64,000 nt of DNA from an uncultured Acidimicrobiaceae bacterium (GTDB lineage: Bacteria > Actinomycetota > Acidimicrobiia > Acidimicrobiales > Bog-793). Within the stretch, counting starts at the first letter, position 1, and the number at the start of each line of letters is the position of its first letter. The stretch covers positions 112,928-176,927 of the forward strand of contig CAWDDW010000001.1 of NCBI GenBank assembly GCA_963801185.1, written 5' to 3'. Both the position numbers and the translations under genes were made by a program. A model generated the notes under the pieces. The model was not told where the DNA came from. It worked only from the letters and a program-made list of their open reading frames with translations, and did no database searches. Below, piece after piece: positions 1-8,306 of this stretch.

Positions 1-1407
1 CAGCCGGTGGGCCGTGCGATCGAGGGCAGCCTCGCTGCGGGCCGAGAGGACGAGCAGCTGCTCCGTCAACCCGGGCTCGGCTGTGGGAATGGGAGGGGCT
101 TCTTCCACGATGACGTGCGCGTTGGTGCCGCCGACACCGAGCGAGGAGATTCCTGCCCGACGCGGGCCGTCGGCCGTCCACGGCGTCCCTTCGTCCGTGA
201 TTGTGAAGGGGCTCTTCTGGAGCTCGAGCAGCGTGCTCGGCGCGGTGAAGTTCGCGAGCGGGGGAAGCCAGCCATGGCGGAGGGCCTGCACCACCTTGAT
301 GAGGCTCGCGACGCCGGCCGCCGTGTCGAGATGCCCGATGTTGGGCTTAGTCGACACCAAACGGCAGAATCCCGTCTCGGCGGTGTCGGCGCGGAAGGCC
401 TCGGTGAGGGCGGTGAACTCGACGGGGTCCCCGACGGCGGTCCCGGTGCCGTGGGCTTCGAGCAGCGTGATGCTGCGCGCGTCGACACCGGCGACAGCGA
501 GCGCTTCTCGCACGACGTCGATGTGGCCGTCGACGCTCGGGGCGAGGTAACCGACCTTGCGTGCACCGTCGTTGTTGACGGCGCTGCCCCGGAGCAAGGC
601 CAGAATCGGGTCCCCGTCCCGGACGGCGTCATCCAACCGCCGGAGGGCGACCACGCCGACCCCACTCGTGAGCACCGTGCCGGCGGAGTTGACGTCGAAG
701 GCGTGACACCGGCCATCCGGGGCGAGGATCTCGCCATCGTGGTAGACGTAGCCGACTCCGTGAGGAACTTCGATCGTCGCGCCACCGGCGAGGGCGAGAT
801 CGCACTCCAAGGCGAGCAGGCTCTGAGCGGCAAGGTGCACCGCCACGAGCGAGGTCGAACAGGCCGTCTGCACATTGACGCTCGGCCCGCGCAGGTCGAG
901 GCGGTACGACACTCCGGTGGTGAGGAAATCCTTGTCATTGGCAGTATGGCGAAGGAGGAACCAGCCAAGGTCCCGCACGAGCTCGCCTCTCGTGAGCAGG
1001 TTGTGCACGAGGTAGGTGTTCATGCCGCAGCCCGCGAACACGCCGATTGACCCCGAGAACCGCTCTGGCACGTGGCCGGCCGACTCGAGGGCCTCCCATG
1101 CACACTGGTAGAAGTGGCGATGCTGGGGATCCATGACGGCCGCGTCGCGCGGTCCGATCCCGAAGAACTCAGCGTCGAAGCACTCCACGTCGTCGAGGAC
1201 ACCGGCACGCCGGACGTACAGCGGGTCGCTCAACGACAGTGGATCCACGCCGCGTGCCTCTAGCTCACCGGTGTCCAGATCGACCAGGCAGTCCTCACCT
1301 CGGGAGACTCGTCGCCACAGGGAGTCCGGGTCGGGCGCGCCCGGGAACCGCCCCGCCATGCCGACAATGGCGATCTCTGATCCGGTCAGCTCGCCCGTTG
1401 TGCTCAT
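1..1407 (-). CDS. Type I polyketide synthase, N-terminal ketosynthase (KS) domain; partial, gene continues beyond the left window edge
   Basis: Own minus-strand translation from ATG 1407-1405 gives MSTTGELTGSEIAIVGMAGRFPGAPD... KS motifs: VQTACSTSLVAVHLA (active-site Cys), EAHGTGT and KPNIGHL (His). The frame stays open to base 1, so it is absent from the ORF track. Track ORFs 7..1050(+) and 66..968(-) are shadows of it. ATGA start/stop overlap (1404-1407) with the upstream NRPS gene. Confidence 0.9.
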   Translation of the reverse strand, partial: MSTTGELTGSEIAIVGMAGRFPGAPDPDSLWRRVSRGEDCLVDLDTGELEARGVDPLSLSDPLYVRRAGVLDDVECFDAEFFGIGPRDAAVMDPQHRHFYQCAWEALESAGHVPERFSGSIGVFAGCGMNTYLVHNLLTRGELVRDLGWFLLRHTANDKDFLTTGVSYRLDLRGPSVNVQTACSTSLVAVHLAAQSLLALECDLALAGGATIEVPHGVGYVYHDGEILAPDGRCHAFDVNSAGTVLTSGVGVVALRRLDDAVRDGDPILALLRGSAVNNDGARKVGYLAPSVDGHIDVVREALAVAGVDARSITLLEAHGTGTAVGDPVEFTALTEAFRADTAETGFCRLVSTKPNIGHLDTAAGVASLIKVVQALRHGWLPPLANFTAPSTLLELQKSPFTITDEGTPWTADGPRRAGISSLGVGGTNAHVIVEEAPPIPTAEPGLTEQLLVLSARSEAALDRTAHRL

Positions 1408-4400
1408 GCTGGATCACCCCGCCGGCTGGTCAGGGCGGCTCGCCGTCGCGCTCCTCGGTCCGCTGCGTCCGCCGAGCTGAGCTGGGCATTGCCGTTTGTG
1501 CTGGGTTCGCCGGCCGAGCCCAGATTCGCCCCCGGCGCGAGCCAGAACACGATCTCAGCCAGGTGGGCTCCGAGCGTGCGAGCGGTCGGGTAGCGGAAAA
1601 TGTCAGTGAGAGCCAGCGGAGCCGCGGTCTGCTCACAGAGCTCCCGGAAGACCTTGACGGCCAGGAGCGAGTGCCCGCCTATGTCGAAGAAGTTGTCGTC
1701 GCGTCCCACGGAGCGCTCGAGGACTTCGGACCATGCGGCTGCCACAATGTCTTCTGCCGCCTGAGAGCTAGCGGTCGCCGTGCCACGGCCGCCAGTGCCC
1801 GGAGAAACACTTGCGGCGGGTGCTGGGACGGCGGCGTTCGTGCGATCGAGGCGGAGTCTCGGCGAGAGGGCTGCCCGGTCGATCTTGCCGTTCGGCGTCA
1901 GCGGGAAAGCCTCCACCACGACGATGCGCGACGGAACAATGGCCTCGGGCAGTGCGGACCTAGCATGCTCCCTGAGGGCCTCTGCCGAGATCGCCTCGCC
2001 GTCGCGGGTGACGACGTAGCCCTCGAGGAGCGTCGAGGCACCCGTCCCGACGGTTCGCGCGACCGCGCGGACAACCGCGGGGTGAGTTTCGAGGACAGCC
2101 TCGATCTCGCCCAGCTCGACACGGTGGCCACGGAGCTTGATCTGGTTGTCGATCCGGCCGTGGAAGTGGACGAGCCCATCGTCGTCGACCCTCGCCAGGT
2201 CGCCTGTGGCGTAGCAACGACCAAGCCCTGGCGGGGTGACGAAGCGAGCAGCAGTGAGGTCATCGCGCCCGAGATAGCCGCGGCTCACACCGGCGCCGCC
2301 GATGTGGAGCTCGCCGAGCACGCCGACGGGACACTGCACGCCCTTGGCATCAAGGACGTGCACTTTGGTGTTCGCGACGGGTCGTCCGATCGGTACCGGG
2401 CCGTCGTGGTCGGCGGGTATCTCGTGAACGAGTGACCAGATCGTGGTCTCGGTCGGGCCGTACATGTTCGTAATCCGTCCGGGCATGACGCGTCGCAGCT
2501 CGGCTGCCAGCGTCGAGGGCAATTCTTCGCCACCAACGAAGAGGTGCCGCAGCGGCGACAGGGCCGCCCGGTCGGCGGCGTCGGCCAGCAGCAGGGTCGC
2601 TAGCGACGGGGTGCACTGAAGATGGGTGACCTTGTGACGGGTGATGAGCGACGAGATCGACTCTGGCTCGGACTCGGTCCGTGAACCCGAGGCGGCGAAA
2701 CGTTCGCGCGCCATGTTCCTCAGCTCCGCGATGCGCTCGAATCCTGCCACCGCCCGATCGTGATCGACGCCGAAGTCGACGAGGCAGGCGATCTCGTCCA
2801 CTCCCGCAGTGACCATCTGTACCACCAGCTCCATCGCGTCCTCGGGGGAGCCGAACAGCCCGGCGGTGCCCAGGTAGCGGTCGGCGGCCGCGTCGAGCAG
2901 CTGATCGAGCTCGCTCGGTGAGAGCGACCGGAACACCTCGTCGGCGTCTGCACCGCCACCTCGTAGCGTGGGGAACGAGGACGCCATGTCCTTCAGGAGG
3001 GACGTTGCCGATGCAAGGTACGTCTTGAACGGCTCCCGGGCAGCGCCGTGAGCCGTTTCGCGATCCGCGTCGAGGTAGGTGTGCACCATCAAGGTGACCC
3101 GGCCCTCGCCCGAGTGTCCGGCAGCCTGCCTAGCAGCCCGATAGGAGGCGATCTTGGCCGTGAGTTGCTCGATCGATTGCCCGAGGAGGTGGGTGAGGAG
3201 GTTGCAGCCCAATCGACCCGCCAATTCGAACGACTCGGCGCTGCCCACGGTGGTCAACCAGAGCGGCACCTGGTCCTGCACGGGCCGGGGAAGCGTCTGG
3301 ACGTCGACGTCGCCCTTCGGGCCGGCGAACGCAACATGCTCGCCGGCCCACAGCCGTCGCACGAGCTGAATGTTTTCGACAAGACGGCTCTTGGAGTCGG
3401 CGTACGCGTCCGGATTGAGGACGAAGTCATTCGGCTGCCACCCAGAGGCCATGGCCATTCCGACCCGGCCATTCGACAGGTTGTCGACGACGGACCAGTC
3501 CTCTGTGACGGTGATCGGCGAGTGAAGCGGTAATACGACGCTGCCGGCGCGGATCGCCACCCGCTCGGTGATGGCGGCGATAGCCGCCCCGGTGATCGCC
3601 GGGTTGGGGTAGATGCCGCCGAAAGCGTGGAAGTGGCGCTCCGGCGTCCAGATCGCTTCGAATCCATTGCGGTCGGCAAAGCGAGCCCCGTCCATCAGCA
3701 GCCGATAGCCGACGTCACCGTCGGCCTCCGCGCTGGCGAAGTAGAAGAGGCTGAACGTGGGCCTCGACCCGGCCACCGAGCGACCTGGTGCCTCCACGAC
3801 GCCTTGGCGGGAGTCGCCTCGTACGACGACCTGGAAACCCCGGGTCAACGTCCAGAGGAGCTCGAGGATCGAGATGTCAAACGAGAGGCTCGTGACTGCG
3901 AGCCAGACCCCGGGTGGGTCGTGGCCGATCACCTCGTCCATCGCCGCGAAGAAGTTGATCACGTTGCGATGCTCGACCATCACCCCCTTCGGCCGACCCG
4001 TCGACCCCGAGGTGTAGATGACATAGGCGAGGTCCTCCGCTGTGGCTGGTGCTGCCGCGTCGCGTGCCGGCAGGCCGACCGCGAGCGGTGGTAGCTGGTC
4101 GCGAGGATCGACGACGGGGACGCCCGGTGGGAGCCACGATGCCGGCTGCGTAGCGATCACGGCGGCAAGTCCGGCGTCCGCGGCCATGAGACGGAGGCGT
4201 TCGGTCGGATATGCAGGATCGAGCGGGACATATGCGGCACCGCGCGCCAGCACAGCCAGCACTGCAGGTACGAGATGCTCGTCGCGGCCGAGGGCGATTC
4301 CGACGAGATCTCCGCGCCGGACTCCACGCGCAGCGAGGAGCCGGGCGAGCTTCTCGGTGCGGTTGCGGAGGTCCCCGTAGGTGAGCGTGGTGCCGCCTGC

Positions 4401-4862
4401 GGTGACGGCTGGCGCGTTCGGAGTCGCCGCAGCTTGCCGTGCGAAGGCCATGGCGACCGTGTCGCGCTCGTCGAAGTCTCGAGACGTGTCGTTCACCTTC
4501 TCGAAGATGTCGGCATCTGGCGGTCCGATGAGCGGTACACGCCAGACGGATTCGCCAACGCCGGTGGCGACGGCCGCGAGCACACCTCTCAGCTGTGCTG
4601 CGGCACGCTCCAGCGCCGCTTCCGACATTGACCCGGTCGCGGCGCTGAGCACAATGCCACTGTCAGCCACCTCGAGATGCAACGGAGTACTCGGCTCGGG
4701 CGTGACAGCTCGGCATCCGGAGAGCCCGCGTTCGTCGTCGATGGCCACGGCGCCTCGGATGAAACGCCCGCGGAGCTCCGGGTCACGAGCCACCAGGTCG
4801 GCGAGCCAGGGCCCGTCACCCATAGCTGCCTCGAGGGCAGTTCTAGCTGAGCGCACGGCCAC
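1404..4862 (-). CDS. NRPS-type module: adenylation domain interrupted by a luciferase-like monooxygenase, then a peptidyl carrier domain (A-LLM-PCP)
   Basis: 1152-aa ORF. Adenylation cores: LTYGDL, LAYVIYTSGSTGRPKG, FDISILE, NMYGPTETT, GELHIGGAGVSRGY, YATGDL, GRIDNQIKLRGHRVELGEIE, NGKIDR. Carrier motif FFDIGGHSLLAV lies near the C-terminus. No complete condensation or thioesterase domain was recognised. Confidence 0.9.
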   Translation of the reverse strand: MAVRSARTALEAAMGDGPWLADLVARDPELRGRFIRGAVAIDDERGLSGCRAVTPEPSTPLHLEVADSGIVLSAATGSMSEAALERAAAQLRGVLAAVATGVGESVWRVPLIGPPDADIFEKVNDTSRDFDERDTVAMAFARQAAATPNAPAVTAGGTTLTYGDLRNRTEKLARLLAARGVRRGDLVGIALGRDEHLVPAVLAVLARGAAYVPLDPAYPTERLRLMAADAGLAAVIATQPASWLPPGVPVVDPRDQLPPLAVGLPARDAAAPATAEDLAYVIYTSGSTGRPKGVMVEHRNVINFFAAMDEVIGHDPPGVWLAVTSLSFDISILELLWTLTRGFQVVVRGDSRQGVVEAPGRSVAGSRPTFSLFYFASAEADGDVGYRLLMDGARFADRNGFEAIWTPERHFHAFGGIYPNPAITGAAIAAITERVAIRAGSVVLPLHSPITVTEDWSVVDNLSNGRVGMAMASGWQPNDFVLNPDAYADSKSRLVENIQLVRRLWAGEHVAFAGPKGDVDVQTLPRPVQDQVPLWLTTVGSAESFELAGRLGCNLLTHLLGQSIEQLTAKIASYRAARQAAGHSGEGRVTLMVHTYLDADRETAHGAAREPFKTYLASATSLLKDMASSFPTLRGGGADADEVFRSLSPSELDQLLDAAADRYLGTAGLFGSPEDAMELVVQMVTAGVDEIACLVDFGVDHDRAVAGFERIAELRNMARERFAASGSRTESEPESISSLITRHKVTHLQCTPSLATLLLADAADRAALSPLRHLFVGGEELPSTLAAELRRVMPGRITNMYGPTETTIWSLVHEIPADHDGPVPIGRPVANTKVHVLDAKGVQCPVGVLGELHIGGAGVSRGYLGRDDLTAARFVTPPGLGRCYATGDLARVDDDGLVHFHGRIDNQIKLRGHRVELGEIEAVLETHPAVVRAVARTVGTGASTLLEGYVVTRDGEAISAEALREHARSALPEAIVPSRIVVVEAFPLTPNGKIDRAALSPRLRLDRTNAAVPAPAASVSPGTGGRGTATASSQAAEDIVAAAWSEVLERSVGRDDNFFDIGGHSLLAVKVFRELCEQTAAPLALTDIFRYPTARTLGAHLAEIVFWLAPGANLGSAGEPSTNGNAQLSSADAADRGARRRAALTSRRGDPA
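2709..3758 (-). other. Embedded luciferase-like (FMN-type) monooxygenase domain inside the adenylation domain
   Basis: About residues 369-718 of the 1152-aa product (FSLFYFASAEADG...WTPERHFHAFGGIYPNP...LVDFGVDHDR) lie between cores FDISILE (A4) and NMYGPTETT (A5). Boundaries are approximate. Confidence 0.75.
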
Positions 4863-4870
4863 TTCGAAAT

Positions 4871-6161
4871 TTAGTACTCGGGATCTTCCGGCAGCTCCAC
4901 GATCGCGATCGGGCGCCGGACCAGGGGGGCCGTAGCAGCCACGACCGCTAGCACCGGGGCATCTGCGACCTCCAGCGGCACGACAAGCGAGCCCGTCAAC
5001 CGTGCAACCCAGACCGCGGCGGCGGCGGCGATCTCCACCAAAGAGTGAGACTCCTCGGTGACGACAACCTGTCGTCGTCCCAGCGCTCCCAAGCCGGACA
5101 CGCTCCCGACCTCGACTACTGGTACGTGTCGCAGCCGACGCATGACGGAGGCCTCCGCTCGCGCCATGCTCGGGTCCTGATCCTCGAGGGCGGCGAGGAA
5201 CCGATCGGGAGGAGGATCCAAGACGGGCGCCACCGGGCCGTCGAGTTGGGCGAAGACGTCGTCGGCCGGGACAGGTACGCCGTTGGCATCGCTGAGGCCC
5301 TCAAGGAGGAGATCACCATCGGCCATGGTGATGGTCAGGCCCCTCTCACTCAGCGCGATCGCGCCCACCGGCGCGGCACTGTCAGAAGGGAGGCTGCGAG
5401 CAGCGCCGACGACCCAGAACCGTTTGCCTGCCACGAGCCGGACCGAACCCATGGGATTACGAATCCGAGCACCGAGGTCGAGGGCGCGAACCGCCCGCGC
5501 CATCTCCCTGGCCGTTCGGCGTCGATCGACGATCGTCTCGCTGCGGGGCCGGTCGTACCGTCCCCGGTAAAAGCGGGGGCGGTCGGGCTGCCGCGTGGTC
5601 ACAACCTCACCGCGAACGACGGCCGTTACGACAGCAGGAAACGACTCGAGGGCCGCGGCGAAGCACTTGGTGTTCAGCGAGTAGGCCGTCTCGTCCGCGC
5701 TCAGCTCTACCTCGGCAGTGGCCACGATGTCACCGGCGTCCACCTCTTCAGTTAGGAGGTGCCAAGTGACCGCATGGGTGACGGCGCCCGACAACAGCGC
5801 CCAACTCGTGACGTTCCGTCCCGCGAGGTCAGGTAGAGGACCGTCATGGAAGTTCAGCGCGAGCCTCGAAGCGTCGGAGGCTCTCGTCGGGGACGACCCG
5901 GAAATTACCGACGCTGAAGAGCAGTTCGGCCTCGAAGTGGCCGATAGCTGCCGCGAGACCCGCGGCCGGTGAGCGAACAGCTATGCCCCGAGCGGCGGCC
6001 CACGACGCGGCGGCTGGGTGGTCGGATATGACCCCGACGACCTCCAGCCCGCCGCTCAGCGCCAGGTCGGCGCACTCGAGCACGAGCGCGCGGTCGCCGA
6101 CGAAGACTGTCCTCCGCTTGCGGGATCGAATCACTACGGTCCCGGACCGGTTGCTCATCAA
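4871..6161 (-). pseudogene. Formyltransferase-like protein with C-terminal extension; frame broken near 5847-5875 (pseudogene or 1-nt sequence error)
   Basis: ORF 5844..6161 encodes the N-terminal half (...LLFSVGNFRVVPDESLRRFEAR). The catalytic core ALNFHDGPLPDLAGRNVTSWALLSGAVTHAVTWHLLTEEVDAGDIV (N-x-H ... D pattern) continues in the frame of ORF 4871..5794. Skipping one base after ...FEAR restores LNFHDGPLP. Only 8 nt separate its stop from the NRPS start. Confidence 0.7.
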
Positions 6162-6410: not shown

Positions 6411-8306
6411 TTACGGCCCTTCGGGCCACAAGTCGCTCTCGATCGTTGACAGTGTCTGCCCCGCGAACACCGACCGGCACCAGACTTCGGCCGACCAGAG
6501 TCGGACGCGCAACGCGCCCTGAGCAGACTCCAGGACATCTGCAAACTCACGGGTCGGGAAACCAAACACATCCCTGAATACGCCGTCGGACAAAAATAGG
6601 GGGTTCGCGGCGTCCTCGATCCACGCGCCAGCATCGAACATCATGCCGTAGATCTTCGGTCGGTGGGCGATCTTCCAAGGCAGCAGACCTCGAGCGACGT
6701 CGCGCAGGATGCCCTTGCTCCAAGGGCTCACCCTGAACTCGAGAGGCAGGTTCAGAGCGAGTTCGACGACACGAGGATCGAGAAACGGCACTCGTGCCTC
6801 GACGGAGACTTGCATCATATTCTTGTCCATGCGGCTCAACAGGTGCGAAAGGGTGAAGTCAAGGTCGCGCAACAGCTTCGTCTCGAGCGCAGCCCTCGGT
6901 CCAGCGTGGTGCATGTATGCGGACTCGATTTCCGCCTTGATTGCGTCGTCACCGGCTATCCCATCACCGGTTGTCTCGTCACCCGTAGGGCTGTTCGCAC
7001 CCGATCCGTTGCGGCCTCTCGGAATACGTACGGCGGCTAGCTTTTTCAGCCGCCTGTCTACCGCCCGGAGAGTAGCTAGTGGGTGTCCGAGCATGACCGG
7101 TTCCAGGGTGCGGATCGCCCGCTGGCTCGGCGACAAGAATGTGGCTAAGGGGACAGTTCGCCCGCCGATGTACCCGCCGAACAACTCGTCCGCCCCCTCC
7201 CCCGTCAGAAGGACCTTGATACCACGGCCACGGGCACGCTCGGCCATTTGCGATATGGTCACGGAGCTTGCAGTTGCCAACGGAGCGCCGAAGTGAAGAG
7301 TTGCTGCCACGAAGCCGCTCCTCCAGCCCGATTTCGTGACTTCGAACTGGTCAAGTTCGATTCCCAACGCGTCGGCTACGCGCTGCGCAGCTGGGCCTTC
7401 GTCGAAAGCCGGGTCGCCCTTGTACCTGGCCCCGAAGGCGACGAGATCACTCTTGACCTCCACGGCCAACACGGTGATGAGACTCGAGTCCACTCCGCCG
7501 GAGAGCAAGGTCCCCATCGGAACATCGCCGAGTAGAGCATCGTGGACGGCGGAGCGAAGAGTGCCCTCCAGCTCGGAGACGAGGGTCGAGCGGGTACTCG
7601 CTTGCAACTGCCTTTGGCGTTCCGCGTCTACATGGCTCGTGGCGGAGTCCCAGCGGTGGCTTGTGACCCGTGAAGAGTCGAGTGCGATCTCCAACCAGGT
7701 ACCCGGTGAGAGCCTGCGAATGCCGCTTAGAAGCGTGTCGTCTCCTGGATAGCACGACCAATCGAGGATGCTTCTCCAACCGTCCGTCCGCGCTGATGGT
7801 TTGATGCCGGCCGCCAACAGCGCATCGGGTTCGCTTGCGAACCAGATGGCATCATCCGCGCAGGCTATATACAGAGGCTTGATACCGAAACGGTCACGGG
7901 CCAGCAGCAGGCGCCCAGCCGTGAGGTCGAGCGCGGCGAACGCGAACTGACCGTTGAGACGCGGAAGCACACTTGGACCCCAATGGGCGAGCGCATGCAA
8001 GAGTGTGTCGGTGTCTCCGTCGGACACGAAGGACTCGCTGTCAAATTCACTGCGGATCGCCTTGTGGTTGAAGATCTCTCCATTGAATGAGAGCCACCAG
8101 GCTCCGCTGGGGTGACGCATCGGCTGGCGCGCTCGCTCGCTTACGTCGACGATCGCAAGGCGCGTATGGACAAGCCCGACGTTGTCGAGTATCTCCACGC
8201 CCGACCCGTCAGGACCACGATGCGTGAGGGCGTCACGCATCGCCGCGAGTCGCTCAGGCGAGGGGCTCTGGCCGCGAGGAACCACGCAGCCGCCGATACC
8301 GCACAT
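6411..8306 (-). CDS. Asparagine synthase (glutamine-hydrolysing) family amidotransferase
   Basis: 631-aa ORF. N-terminal MCGIGG supplies the Cys2 Ntn glutaminase nucleophile. PP-loop LLSGGVDSSLI is in the synthetase half. Confidence 0.9.
   Translation of the reverse strand: MCGIGGCVVPRGQSPSPERLAAMRDALTHRGPDGSGVEILDNVGLVHTRLAIVDVSERARQPMRHPSGAWWLSFNGEIFNHKAIRSEFDSESFVSDGDTDTLLHALAHWGPSVLPRLNGQFAFAALDLTAGRLLLARDRFGIKPLYIACADDAIWFASEPDALLAAGIKPSARTDGWRSILDWSCYPGDDTLLSGIRRLSPGTWLEIALDSSRVTSHRWDSATSHVDAERQRQLQASTRSTLVSELEGTLRSAVHDALLGDVPMGTLLSGGVDSSLITVLAVEVKSDLVAFGARYKGDPAFDEGPAAQRVADALGIELDQFEVTKSGWRSGFVAATLHFGAPLATASSVTISQMAERARGRGIKVLLTGEGADELFGGYIGGRTVPLATFLSPSQRAIRTLEPVMLGHPLATLRAVDRRLKKLAAVRIPRGRNGSGANSPTGDETTGDGIAGDDAIKAEIESAYMHHAGPRAALETKLLRDLDFTLSHLLSRMDKNMMQVSVEARVPFLDPRVVELALNLPLEFRVSPWSKGILRDVARGLLPWKIAHRPKIYGMMFDAGAWIEDAANPLFLSDGVFRDVFGFPTREFADVLESAQGALRVRLWSAEVWCRSVFAGQTLSTIESDLWPEGP

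Follow-up and report, generated by a model that had tools for sequence, protein, structure and literature searches.

The 64,000-nt stretch analysed here (hereafter the window) spans positions C1:112928-176927 of the genome assembly of an uncultured Acidimicrobiaceae bacterium (GCA_963801185.1; G000). At its start, on the minus strand, it carries a nonribosomal peptide synthetase (NRPS) gene, here called the loader, in which an adenylation (A) domain is split by a luciferase-like monooxygenase (LLM) and followed by a peptidyl carrier domain (PCP). Our analysis indicates that the loader is probably a single gene, cut up by the assembly, which forms an orphan cassette together with a single reducing polyketide synthase (PKS) and a phosphopantetheinyl transferase (PPTase), and in which the PKS starter would be made by oxidation of formylglycine.

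The open reading frame (ORF) 1404-4862, of 1152 residues (P0001), is present as the preliminary description had it, with the split A domain followed by the PCP, but its upstream end proved to be an artefact and not the boundary of the module. In a sister assembly, GCA_052143955.1 (contig JBKQRP010000040.1, stretch L010, with the contig end falling inside the PCP region of the loader gene), the loader is intact and encodes a protein of 1547 residues (P0003) that is 100% identical over 97% of P0001. Over 14.6 kb of alignment, the window and the sister contig are 99.95% identical, with four substitutions and three gaps, each of the gaps being one surplus base on the window side, placed by the pairwise alignment at 5864, 4877 and 4869. 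When these bases are removed, the ORFs 5844-6161, 4871-5794 and 1404-4862 join into one frame and the coordinate arithmetic closes exactly, giving a full loader gene that continues upstream through the three 1-bp insertions to 6158. It is the last two insertions that give rise to a stop and, right after it, to the GTG start at 4862. Furthermore, the best matches of P0001 in a large protein collection are almost all 1500-1620 residues long and carry Formyl_trans_N besides the domains of the ORF, and more than 100 homologues of about 1550 residues have the same Pfam set. The features of the locus are as follows.

1404-6158, minus strand: whole loader, F - C-lobe - A(LLM) - PCP; intact in the sister protein P0003, in three reading frames in the window.
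5267-6158, minus strand: formyltransferase (F) domain, catalytic and C-terminal subdomain, residues 1-297 (Pfam Formyl_trans_N, 7.8e-14; ArnA formyltransferase domain).
5864, minus strand: extra base G, shifting the frame inside the F domain (alignment with the sister assembly).
4877, minus strand: extra base G (same alignment).
4869, minus strand: extra base T in a T run, which together with 4877 produces an apparent stop followed by a GTG start at 4862 (same alignment).
4461-5152, minus strand: remnant of a condensation (C) domain, C-terminal lobe only (31-homologue profile).
3816-4445, minus strand: N-terminal part of the A domain, cores A1-A4, up to FDISILE (Pfam AMP-binding).
2718-3755, minus strand: luciferase-like FMN monooxygenase (LLM) between A4 and A5 (TIGR04020; PuwE 6KET).
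1884-2678, minus strand: C-terminal part of the A domain, cores A5-A10, NMYGPTETT to PNGKIDR (TIGR01733 at residues 729-934, AMP-binding_C at 919-993).
1560-1745, minus strand: PCP with the GGHSL serine (PP-binding, 1.6e-11, residues 1040-1101).
1404-1407, minus strand: ATGA, the loader stop overlapping the PKS start.
1-1407, minus strand: first 469 residues of the PKS, ketosynthase (KS) and linker; the gene leaves the window and runs to C1:108088.
C1:107414-108094, outside the window: Sfp-type PPTase directly downstream of the PKS.

Domains were called with Pfam and NCBIfam profiles, and the invariance of motifs was counted over 47 family members for the loader and 29 homologues for the PKS. 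In P0003 the A domain occupies residues 571-780 and 1160-1424, the LLM residues 801-1146 and the PCP residues 1471-1532. The F domain matches the ArnA formyltransferase domain over residues 49-297, C-terminal subdomain included (E 2.4e-12), and its triad N102, H104 and D140 is invariant in 47/47 homologues, as is the PCP serine. In the family as well F is part of the module, being fused in one protein in most of the 120 best homologues. Between F and A lies a 270-residue spacer, in which residues ~336-565 of P0003 gave no Pfam match from the single sequence. A profile of this spacer built from 31 homologues and compared with NRPS C domains matched them at chain positions ~195-470 (Txo2, 1.8e-25; Txo1, 2.3e-24; McyB, 1.2e-23; EntF, 7.7e-14). 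The HHxxxDG motif of condensation domains normally sits in the N-lobe. Since the profile matches stop short of the N-lobe, this lobe is missing from the loader, and the C-lobe that is left is, judging by these matches, catalytically empty. With its first 135 residues the ORF still covers the tail of this remnant, and no domain starts there. That the module has no complete C domain and no thioesterase (TE), as had been described, is in agreement with these results: only the C-lobe was detected, and the KS gene follows the PCP. Additional tailoring domains were looked for in the longer family members (L037, L071, L023 and L034) and none were found.

The position of the LLM was also borne out. 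On P0001, AMP-binding (profile positions 1-238) matches residues 140-349 and Bac_luciferase residues 384-690, and TIGR04020, the profile of MupA/Atu3671 natural-product LLMs, matches residues 370-715 over 341/341 profile positions with 452.8 bits (cut-off 244.45). Because this match falls between the two parts of the A domain (140-349 and 729-934), the LLM lies inside it, between FDISILE (A4) and NMYGPTETT (A5), at almost the coordinates previously given for it (about 2709-3758). The flavin monooxygenase of MtaG and MelG, with which the insertion point had been compared, likewise sits between a4 and a5 (PMC10204066). Over its whole length the LLM can be aligned with the PuwE monooxygenase domain of solved structure (6KET, E 4.6e-92), and no other LLM of TIGR04020 level occurs in the window genome. 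Two flavin reductases are encoded elsewhere in this genome, and a search for one clustered with the loader found none in the locus.

The specificity code was read by anchoring on FDISILE, VTHLQCTPS, HLFVGGEE, NMYGPTETTIW and PNGKIDR, with the ten pocket positions placed by GrsA numbering. The ten positions read DILQFGMIWK. Across the 47 homologues eight of them are invariant, position 330 is I or V and position 299 varies (F/M/Y/L/C), so that the exact code DILQLGMIWK is found in 8/47. DILQFGMIWK is a classical glycine code, by which the predicted substrate of the loader is assignable as glycine. The preliminary description had left the substrate unassigned: it had correctly seen D-I-L as glycine-like, but had taken the residues next to NMYGPTE as not glycine-like, and these (M, I and W) are of glycine type. 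Alignment with LgrA A2, tried as a cross-check of the code, was uninformative because its pocket residues differ.

Downstream, the translational coupling to a gene that begins with a KS stands: the ATGA overlap at 1404-1407 is conserved, being also present in Actinomarinicola tropica and 7 further loci. The PKS is a single module KS-AT-KR-DH-ACP-TE, in which acyltransferase (AT), ketoreductase (KR), dehydratase (DH) and acyl carrier protein (ACP) domains lie between KS and TE, the domain content being taken from the A. tropica protein. In the window genome the KS Cys/His/His residues are intact and the AT motif is GHSLG. Additionally, at least 90% of the 29 PKS homologues keep the KS Cys/His/His, the AT GHSxG, the KR NADPH-binding motif and K/S/Y, the DH His, the ACP Ser and the TE Ser/Asp/His.

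The pair is conserved far beyond this genome. A scan of a collection with one genome per species matched at least 512 stretches encoding a relative, with full-length loader matches in Acidimicrobiia, Planctomycetota, Gemmatimonadota, Acidobacteriota and Chloroflexota, and also in Myxococcota, Ignavibacteria, Rhodothermales, Gammaproteobacteria and Alphaproteobacteria. When all ORFs from 81 loci were clustered into gene families, just two were widely shared, the loader (63) and the PKS (52), the next family having 8. In most loci with enough room for it the PKS lies directly downstream of the loader, with the ATGA overlap in at least nine loci and gaps of a few to ~130 nt in the others; it is upstream on the same strand in two loci (L034 and L070) and on the opposite strand in one (L023). 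About nine loci have no PKS within 10 kb of the loader. Full-length F-A(LLM)-PCP genes that lack a PKS over 10 kb to both sides were seen in L021, L022, L037, L042, L054, L063 and L068, where the neighbours are glycosyltransferases, alpha/beta hydrolases, a PhyH dioxygenase or an acyl-CoA-ligase-like gene. Other enzymes, or a PKS from a distant locus, may thus serve as partners of the loader as well. The recurrent neighbours of the cassette as a whole are WecG/TagA, glycosyltransferases of families GT4 and GT2, Bac_transf (initiating sugar transferases), PPTases and alpha/beta hydrolases. In the window genome the cassette lies between a block of GT4, heptose and GHMP-kinase genes and a set encoding a ligase, an ACP, hydrolases and an AsnB-like enzyme; there is no glycosyltransferase in the operon, the GT4 gene being ~3.5 kb off on the other strand, and the PPTase gene comes directly after the PKS.

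Marine Roseobacter bacteria are known to have a cluster of genes for an NRPS, a PKS, a glycosyltransferase and a PPTase, conserved in 28/57 Roseobacter genomes (PMC4337385). The cluster is credited to Martens et al. 2007, as cited in PMC4337385 and PMC5014874, and both of these papers give its product as unknown; we found no later literature naming the product. Among 81 sampled Rhodobacteraceae genomes the LLM is present in 21, in 20 of which it lies within an open frame of ~1500-1700 residues. One Rhodobacteraceae locus (L112; G042:C1:3876001-3896000) has the order PKS - GT2 - F-A(LLM)-PCP - PPTase, in which PKS and GT2 overlap by 4 nt, as do NRPS and PPTase, and both its NRPS and PKS proteins have the same Pfam sets as the window-type cassette. 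The gene order PKS-GT2-NRPS-PPTase of this locus is that reported in PMC5014874 and PMC4337385. We accordingly assign the window pair to a widespread orphan cassette of two genes that corresponds to the conserved Roseobacter cluster. The two have in common the domain content of NRPS and PKS (L033 aligns over its full length at ~40% identity), an adjacent PPTase gene and nearby glycosyltransferases. They differ in that the Rhodobacteraceae cluster has the order PKS-GT2-NRPS-PPTase with the glycosyltransferase inside the operon, whereas the window has the order NRPS-PKS-PPTase, with GT4 and heptose genes next door on the opposite strand, in an Acidimicrobiales host. A gene for a Wzz-like chain-length determinant follows the L112 cluster, which is a further tie of the cassette to polysaccharide assembly.

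By analogy with characterised systems, the domain map, the glycine code, the motifs, the conservation of the pair and its frequent position in glycan loci can be arranged into a short pathway. The A domain would load glycine on the PCP and the F domain would N-formylate the bound glycine with N10-formyl-tetrahydrofolate. In this regard, the F domains of the F-A(Gly)-PCP loaders PtxE, OzmO and CongA give formylglycyl-S-PCP, which a KS extends with malonate (PMC5764310). The thioester offered to the KS is most likely N-formylated here too, since an F domain is present in the intact sister protein and in all full-length homologues. The LLM could then hydroxylate C-alpha of the tethered formylglycine, using O2 and FMNH2 from an unlinked flavin reductase; flavin monooxygenase domains in glycine modules hydroxylate C-alpha (PMC10204066, PMC11342130), and alpha-hydroxylation has been assigned to the Ox domain of PuwE (PMC4219810). 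N-hydroxylation by the LLM, leading to a hadacidin-like N-formyl-N-hydroxyglycine, was given low weight because such flavin domains have, in the papers found, been assigned hydroxylations alpha to the thioester (PMC10204066, PMC4219810). The KS would take the hydroxylated formylglycine starter, or the glyoxylyl thioester left if the formamide is lost, and the PKS would add one malonyl-type unit. KR and DH would bring the chain to a 2-enoyl C4 stage and the TE would release it, the expected product being 4-formamido-4-hydroxybut-2-enoate or a derivative. The glycan context of the cassette suggests glycosylation or transfer to a sugar polymer, and we speculate that the product is meant for, or attached to, a sugar or a polymer of the cell surface.

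Several observations weigh against this proposal. No product, transcript or enzyme assay for any member of the family was found in the literature. KR precedes DH, which is an unusual order (L011:14578-20616 and homologues; C1:108088-114334 in the window genome), and the AT specificity motif of A. tropica is AAAHS and not HAFH or YASH, with HS alone conserved across the family, so that this atypical motif leaves the extender unit not securely malonate. In addition, the cassette was not found in the 24 same-family and 16 same-order genomes searched; with 0/40 relatives carrying it, it is accessory and patchy in the lineage of the window. Lastly, the loader and the PKS together have six frame breaks in 10.8 kb, where ~2.3 would be expected from the genome background.

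The alternative that survives best, although we give it a clearly smaller share than retention of the nitrogen, is a cleavage like that of MtaG, in which the carbinolamide would collapse, the formamide would be lost and a glyoxylyl-S-PCP starter would give 4-oxobut-2-enoate after one extension. In MtaG/MelG the carbinolamide breaks into a terminal amide and a carrier-bound glyoxylate (PMC10204066, PMC11342130), and the insertion point and glycine specificity of the loader are those of these enzymes, in which hydroxylation leads to N-C-alpha cleavage; moreover, an N-formyl group could be regarded as the smallest possible N-acyl mimic of a peptidyl-glycine. On the other hand, solanimycin biosynthesis is proposed to keep and extend an alpha-hydroxyglycine (PMC10204066), a dedicated F domain merely to discard formamide seems wasteful, and nothing in the sequence discriminates between loss and retention of the nitrogen.

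It is rather improbable that the cluster has truly decayed in this genome, with real insertions and frameshifts in loader and PKS and the A(LLM)-PCP frame as a pseudogene fragment. Such decay would account for the excess of breaks noted above and would suit an accessory cassette, and all three indels of the 14.6-kb comparison with the sister assembly lie in the loader gene. In the window genome the PKS, most of which lies beyond the window, is in four pieces in alternating frames, that is, with three frameshifts (frame changes near C1 ~112583, 111895 and 110245). These pieces are collinear with residues 1-572, 574-803, 804-1355 and 1359-1993 of the intact 2012-residue PKS of A. tropica, and zero residues are lost at the junctions. 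To set a background for frame breaks, 128 long ORFs with high G+C at third codon positions, from 400 kb of a genome of the same family (G005), were compared by blastp with all six-frame segments of G000. Among the 84 with an orthologue-like match, 23 were divided among neighbouring segments that differ in frame (a few of these being antisense duplicates), a rate of roughly one event per 4-5 kb of coding sequence that equals the 3 indels in 14.6 kb against the sister assembly. Examples of split genes are found at C1:1048799-1052639, C3:1966826-1968426 and C3:978422-981215, and one gene is in five pieces. A dnaE2-like gene is in two parts; rpoB and rpoC are unbroken. The window genome has 3 contigs and an estimated completeness of only 85.6%, which fits an indel-rich long-read assembly.

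Against decay, then, stand a 99.95%-identical assembly with the NRPS gene intact, the splitting of ~25% of long conserved genes genome-wide (the dnaE2-like gene included), premature stops that arise solely through frame changes with no residue lost at any junction, and catalytic motifs that are all intact. As the genome-wide split rate matches the indel rate against the sister assembly, we take the six breaks in the two genes to be errors of the assembly and not signs of decay. The preliminary description had named a decayed KS gene as a finding that would speak against it; three frameshifts do lie in that gene outside the window, but the genome-wide data point to errors of assembly. With roughly one single-base indel per 4-5 kb, odd ORF boundaries and apparent pseudogenes elsewhere in G000 should not be taken at face value either. 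The four substitutions against the sister assembly (window positions ~15747, 8748, 7471 and 3247) are all C in the sister and T in the window, at the third base of CGCG, and could be due to methylation-linked base-calling error or to deamination at methylated CGCG.

Two further explanations have very little in their favour. A stand-alone A(LLM)-PCP protein without an N-terminal tailoring domain, supplying the KS with a free aminoacyl thioester, oxidised but of unassigned identity, would fit the window as assembled, where the ORF begins with GTG at 4862 right after a stop, but this is hardly tenable: that stop is made by two 1-bp insertions absent from the sister assembly, fusion to F is the rule among the best homologues, the first residues of the ORF are C-lobe tail and the A-domain code is that of glycine.

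Equally hard to sustain is the logic of an oxazole starter, as in oxazolomycin, conglobatin and phthoxazolin, with an AsnB-like enzyme as a cyclodehydratase of the OzmP/CongE type. An AsnB-type amidotransferase gene with the PP-loop SGGVDS lies at 6411-8306 (minus strand), 250 bp upstream of the loader, and appears to be part of the ligase/ACP/double-hydrolase set next door. The oxazole pathways do place a KS after F-A(Gly)-PCP and use ATP-pyrophosphatases with an SGGxDS loop as cyclodehydratases (PMC5764310), and the upstream gene has an Asn_synthase PP-loop domain, but its glutamine amidotransferase domain is typical of AsnB, known oxazole loaders have no LLM and the PKS here adds KR, DH and TE. 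Furthermore, the cassette does not bring the AsnB-like gene with it elsewhere (just 2 weak matches in 80 loci), which is why the enzyme was rejected as an oxazole cyclodehydratase; no OzmP/CongE/PtxD-type cyclodehydratase was conserved with the cassette in these loci.

Under the formylglycine-oxidation proposal, the cassette might make an N-formyl-alpha-hydroxy (or alpha-oxo) C4 enoic acid from glycine and one malonate, to be glycosylated or placed on a surface polysaccharide, an idea that as a whole we consider less likely than not. If it were true, there would be an NRPS-PKS-derived glycan substituent in hundreds of species across many phyla, and the F and LLM loader would provide a first case of a starter module built to hand a PKS an oxidised formylglycine or a glyoxylyl unit. 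The pathway is small, with two genes and a PPTase, and extremely widespread, being present in about a quarter of the sampled Rhodobacteraceae. It has been listed as an orphan in Roseobacter genome papers since 2007, and neither its product nor a study of the loader was found in the literature searched. A full-text search for the F/half-C/A(LLM) architecture also found none, and a 2020 survey of interrupted A domains makes no mention of oxygenase inserts. As the cassette is so often found in the company of glycan genes, working out what it makes could bring to light a modification of bacterial surface polymers that has gone unrecognised, and would also tell what role an oxygenase embedded in an A domain has outside chain release. 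The window copy is another member of this cassette, an actinobacterial one, and adds little beyond that, but the biology is testable in cultured carriers, among them Phaeobacter inhibens (Inhi_1974) and A. tropica (CP045851).

Comparison with characterised systems places each part of the cassette. The preliminary description had seen a logic different from that of MtaG/MelG, and this stands insofar as the module feeds a KS and does not end a chain; as a logic without precedent it does not, given PtxE, OzmO and CongA (PMC5764310) and SolF (PMC10204066). The loader shares with MtaG/MelG a glycine A domain with a flavin (luciferase-like) monooxygenase between a4 and a5 and, by analogy, an oxygenase that would act at C-alpha of a carrier-bound glycyl unit (PMC10204066, PMC11342130). 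The MtaG/MelG module, C-A(MOx)-PCP-TE (MOx, monooxygenase), has in contrast a full C domain for taking up a long acyl chain, carries its own TE, stands in terminal position and releases a terminal amide. The loader has F and half a C domain at its N-terminus and no TE, starts the line and is followed by a KS, the TE being at the end of the partner PKS.

With PtxE (phthoxazolin), OzmO (oxazolomycin) and CongA (conglobatin) the loader shares the one-module F-A(Gly)-PCP arrangement (PMC5764310), the catalytic Asn/His/Asp of the F domain and the succession of loader and KS, the malonate extender of those systems being presumed here in spite of the atypical AAAHS motif that the AT of A. tropica has. 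The A domains of these three are described without an inserted domain, an adjacent cyclodehydratase (OzmP/CongE/PtxD) leads to the oxazole and the PKS lines are long and multimodular, whereas the window family has the LLM insert, the C-lobe spacer and a single KR-DH-TE module. SolF (solanimycin) resembles the proposed pathway in that its alpha-hydroxyglycine is proposed to be kept and extended and not cleaved (PMC10204066), but its oxygenase sits between a8 and a9, in a module with a full C domain, in mid-position of a long NRPS/PKS line. The PuwE monooxygenase (puwainaphycin, 6KET), the solved structure closest to the LLM and one to which alpha-hydroxylation has been assigned (PMC4219810), is not embedded in an A domain but flanked by an NRPS module and by a PKS module that has an aminotransferase, and its substrate is a 3-amino fatty acyl chain. 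Judged by its domain architecture, the cassette is a variation on the characterised systems, joining an A-embedded oxygenase like that of MtaG and a formylating loader like OzmO and CongA to a single reducing PKS module.

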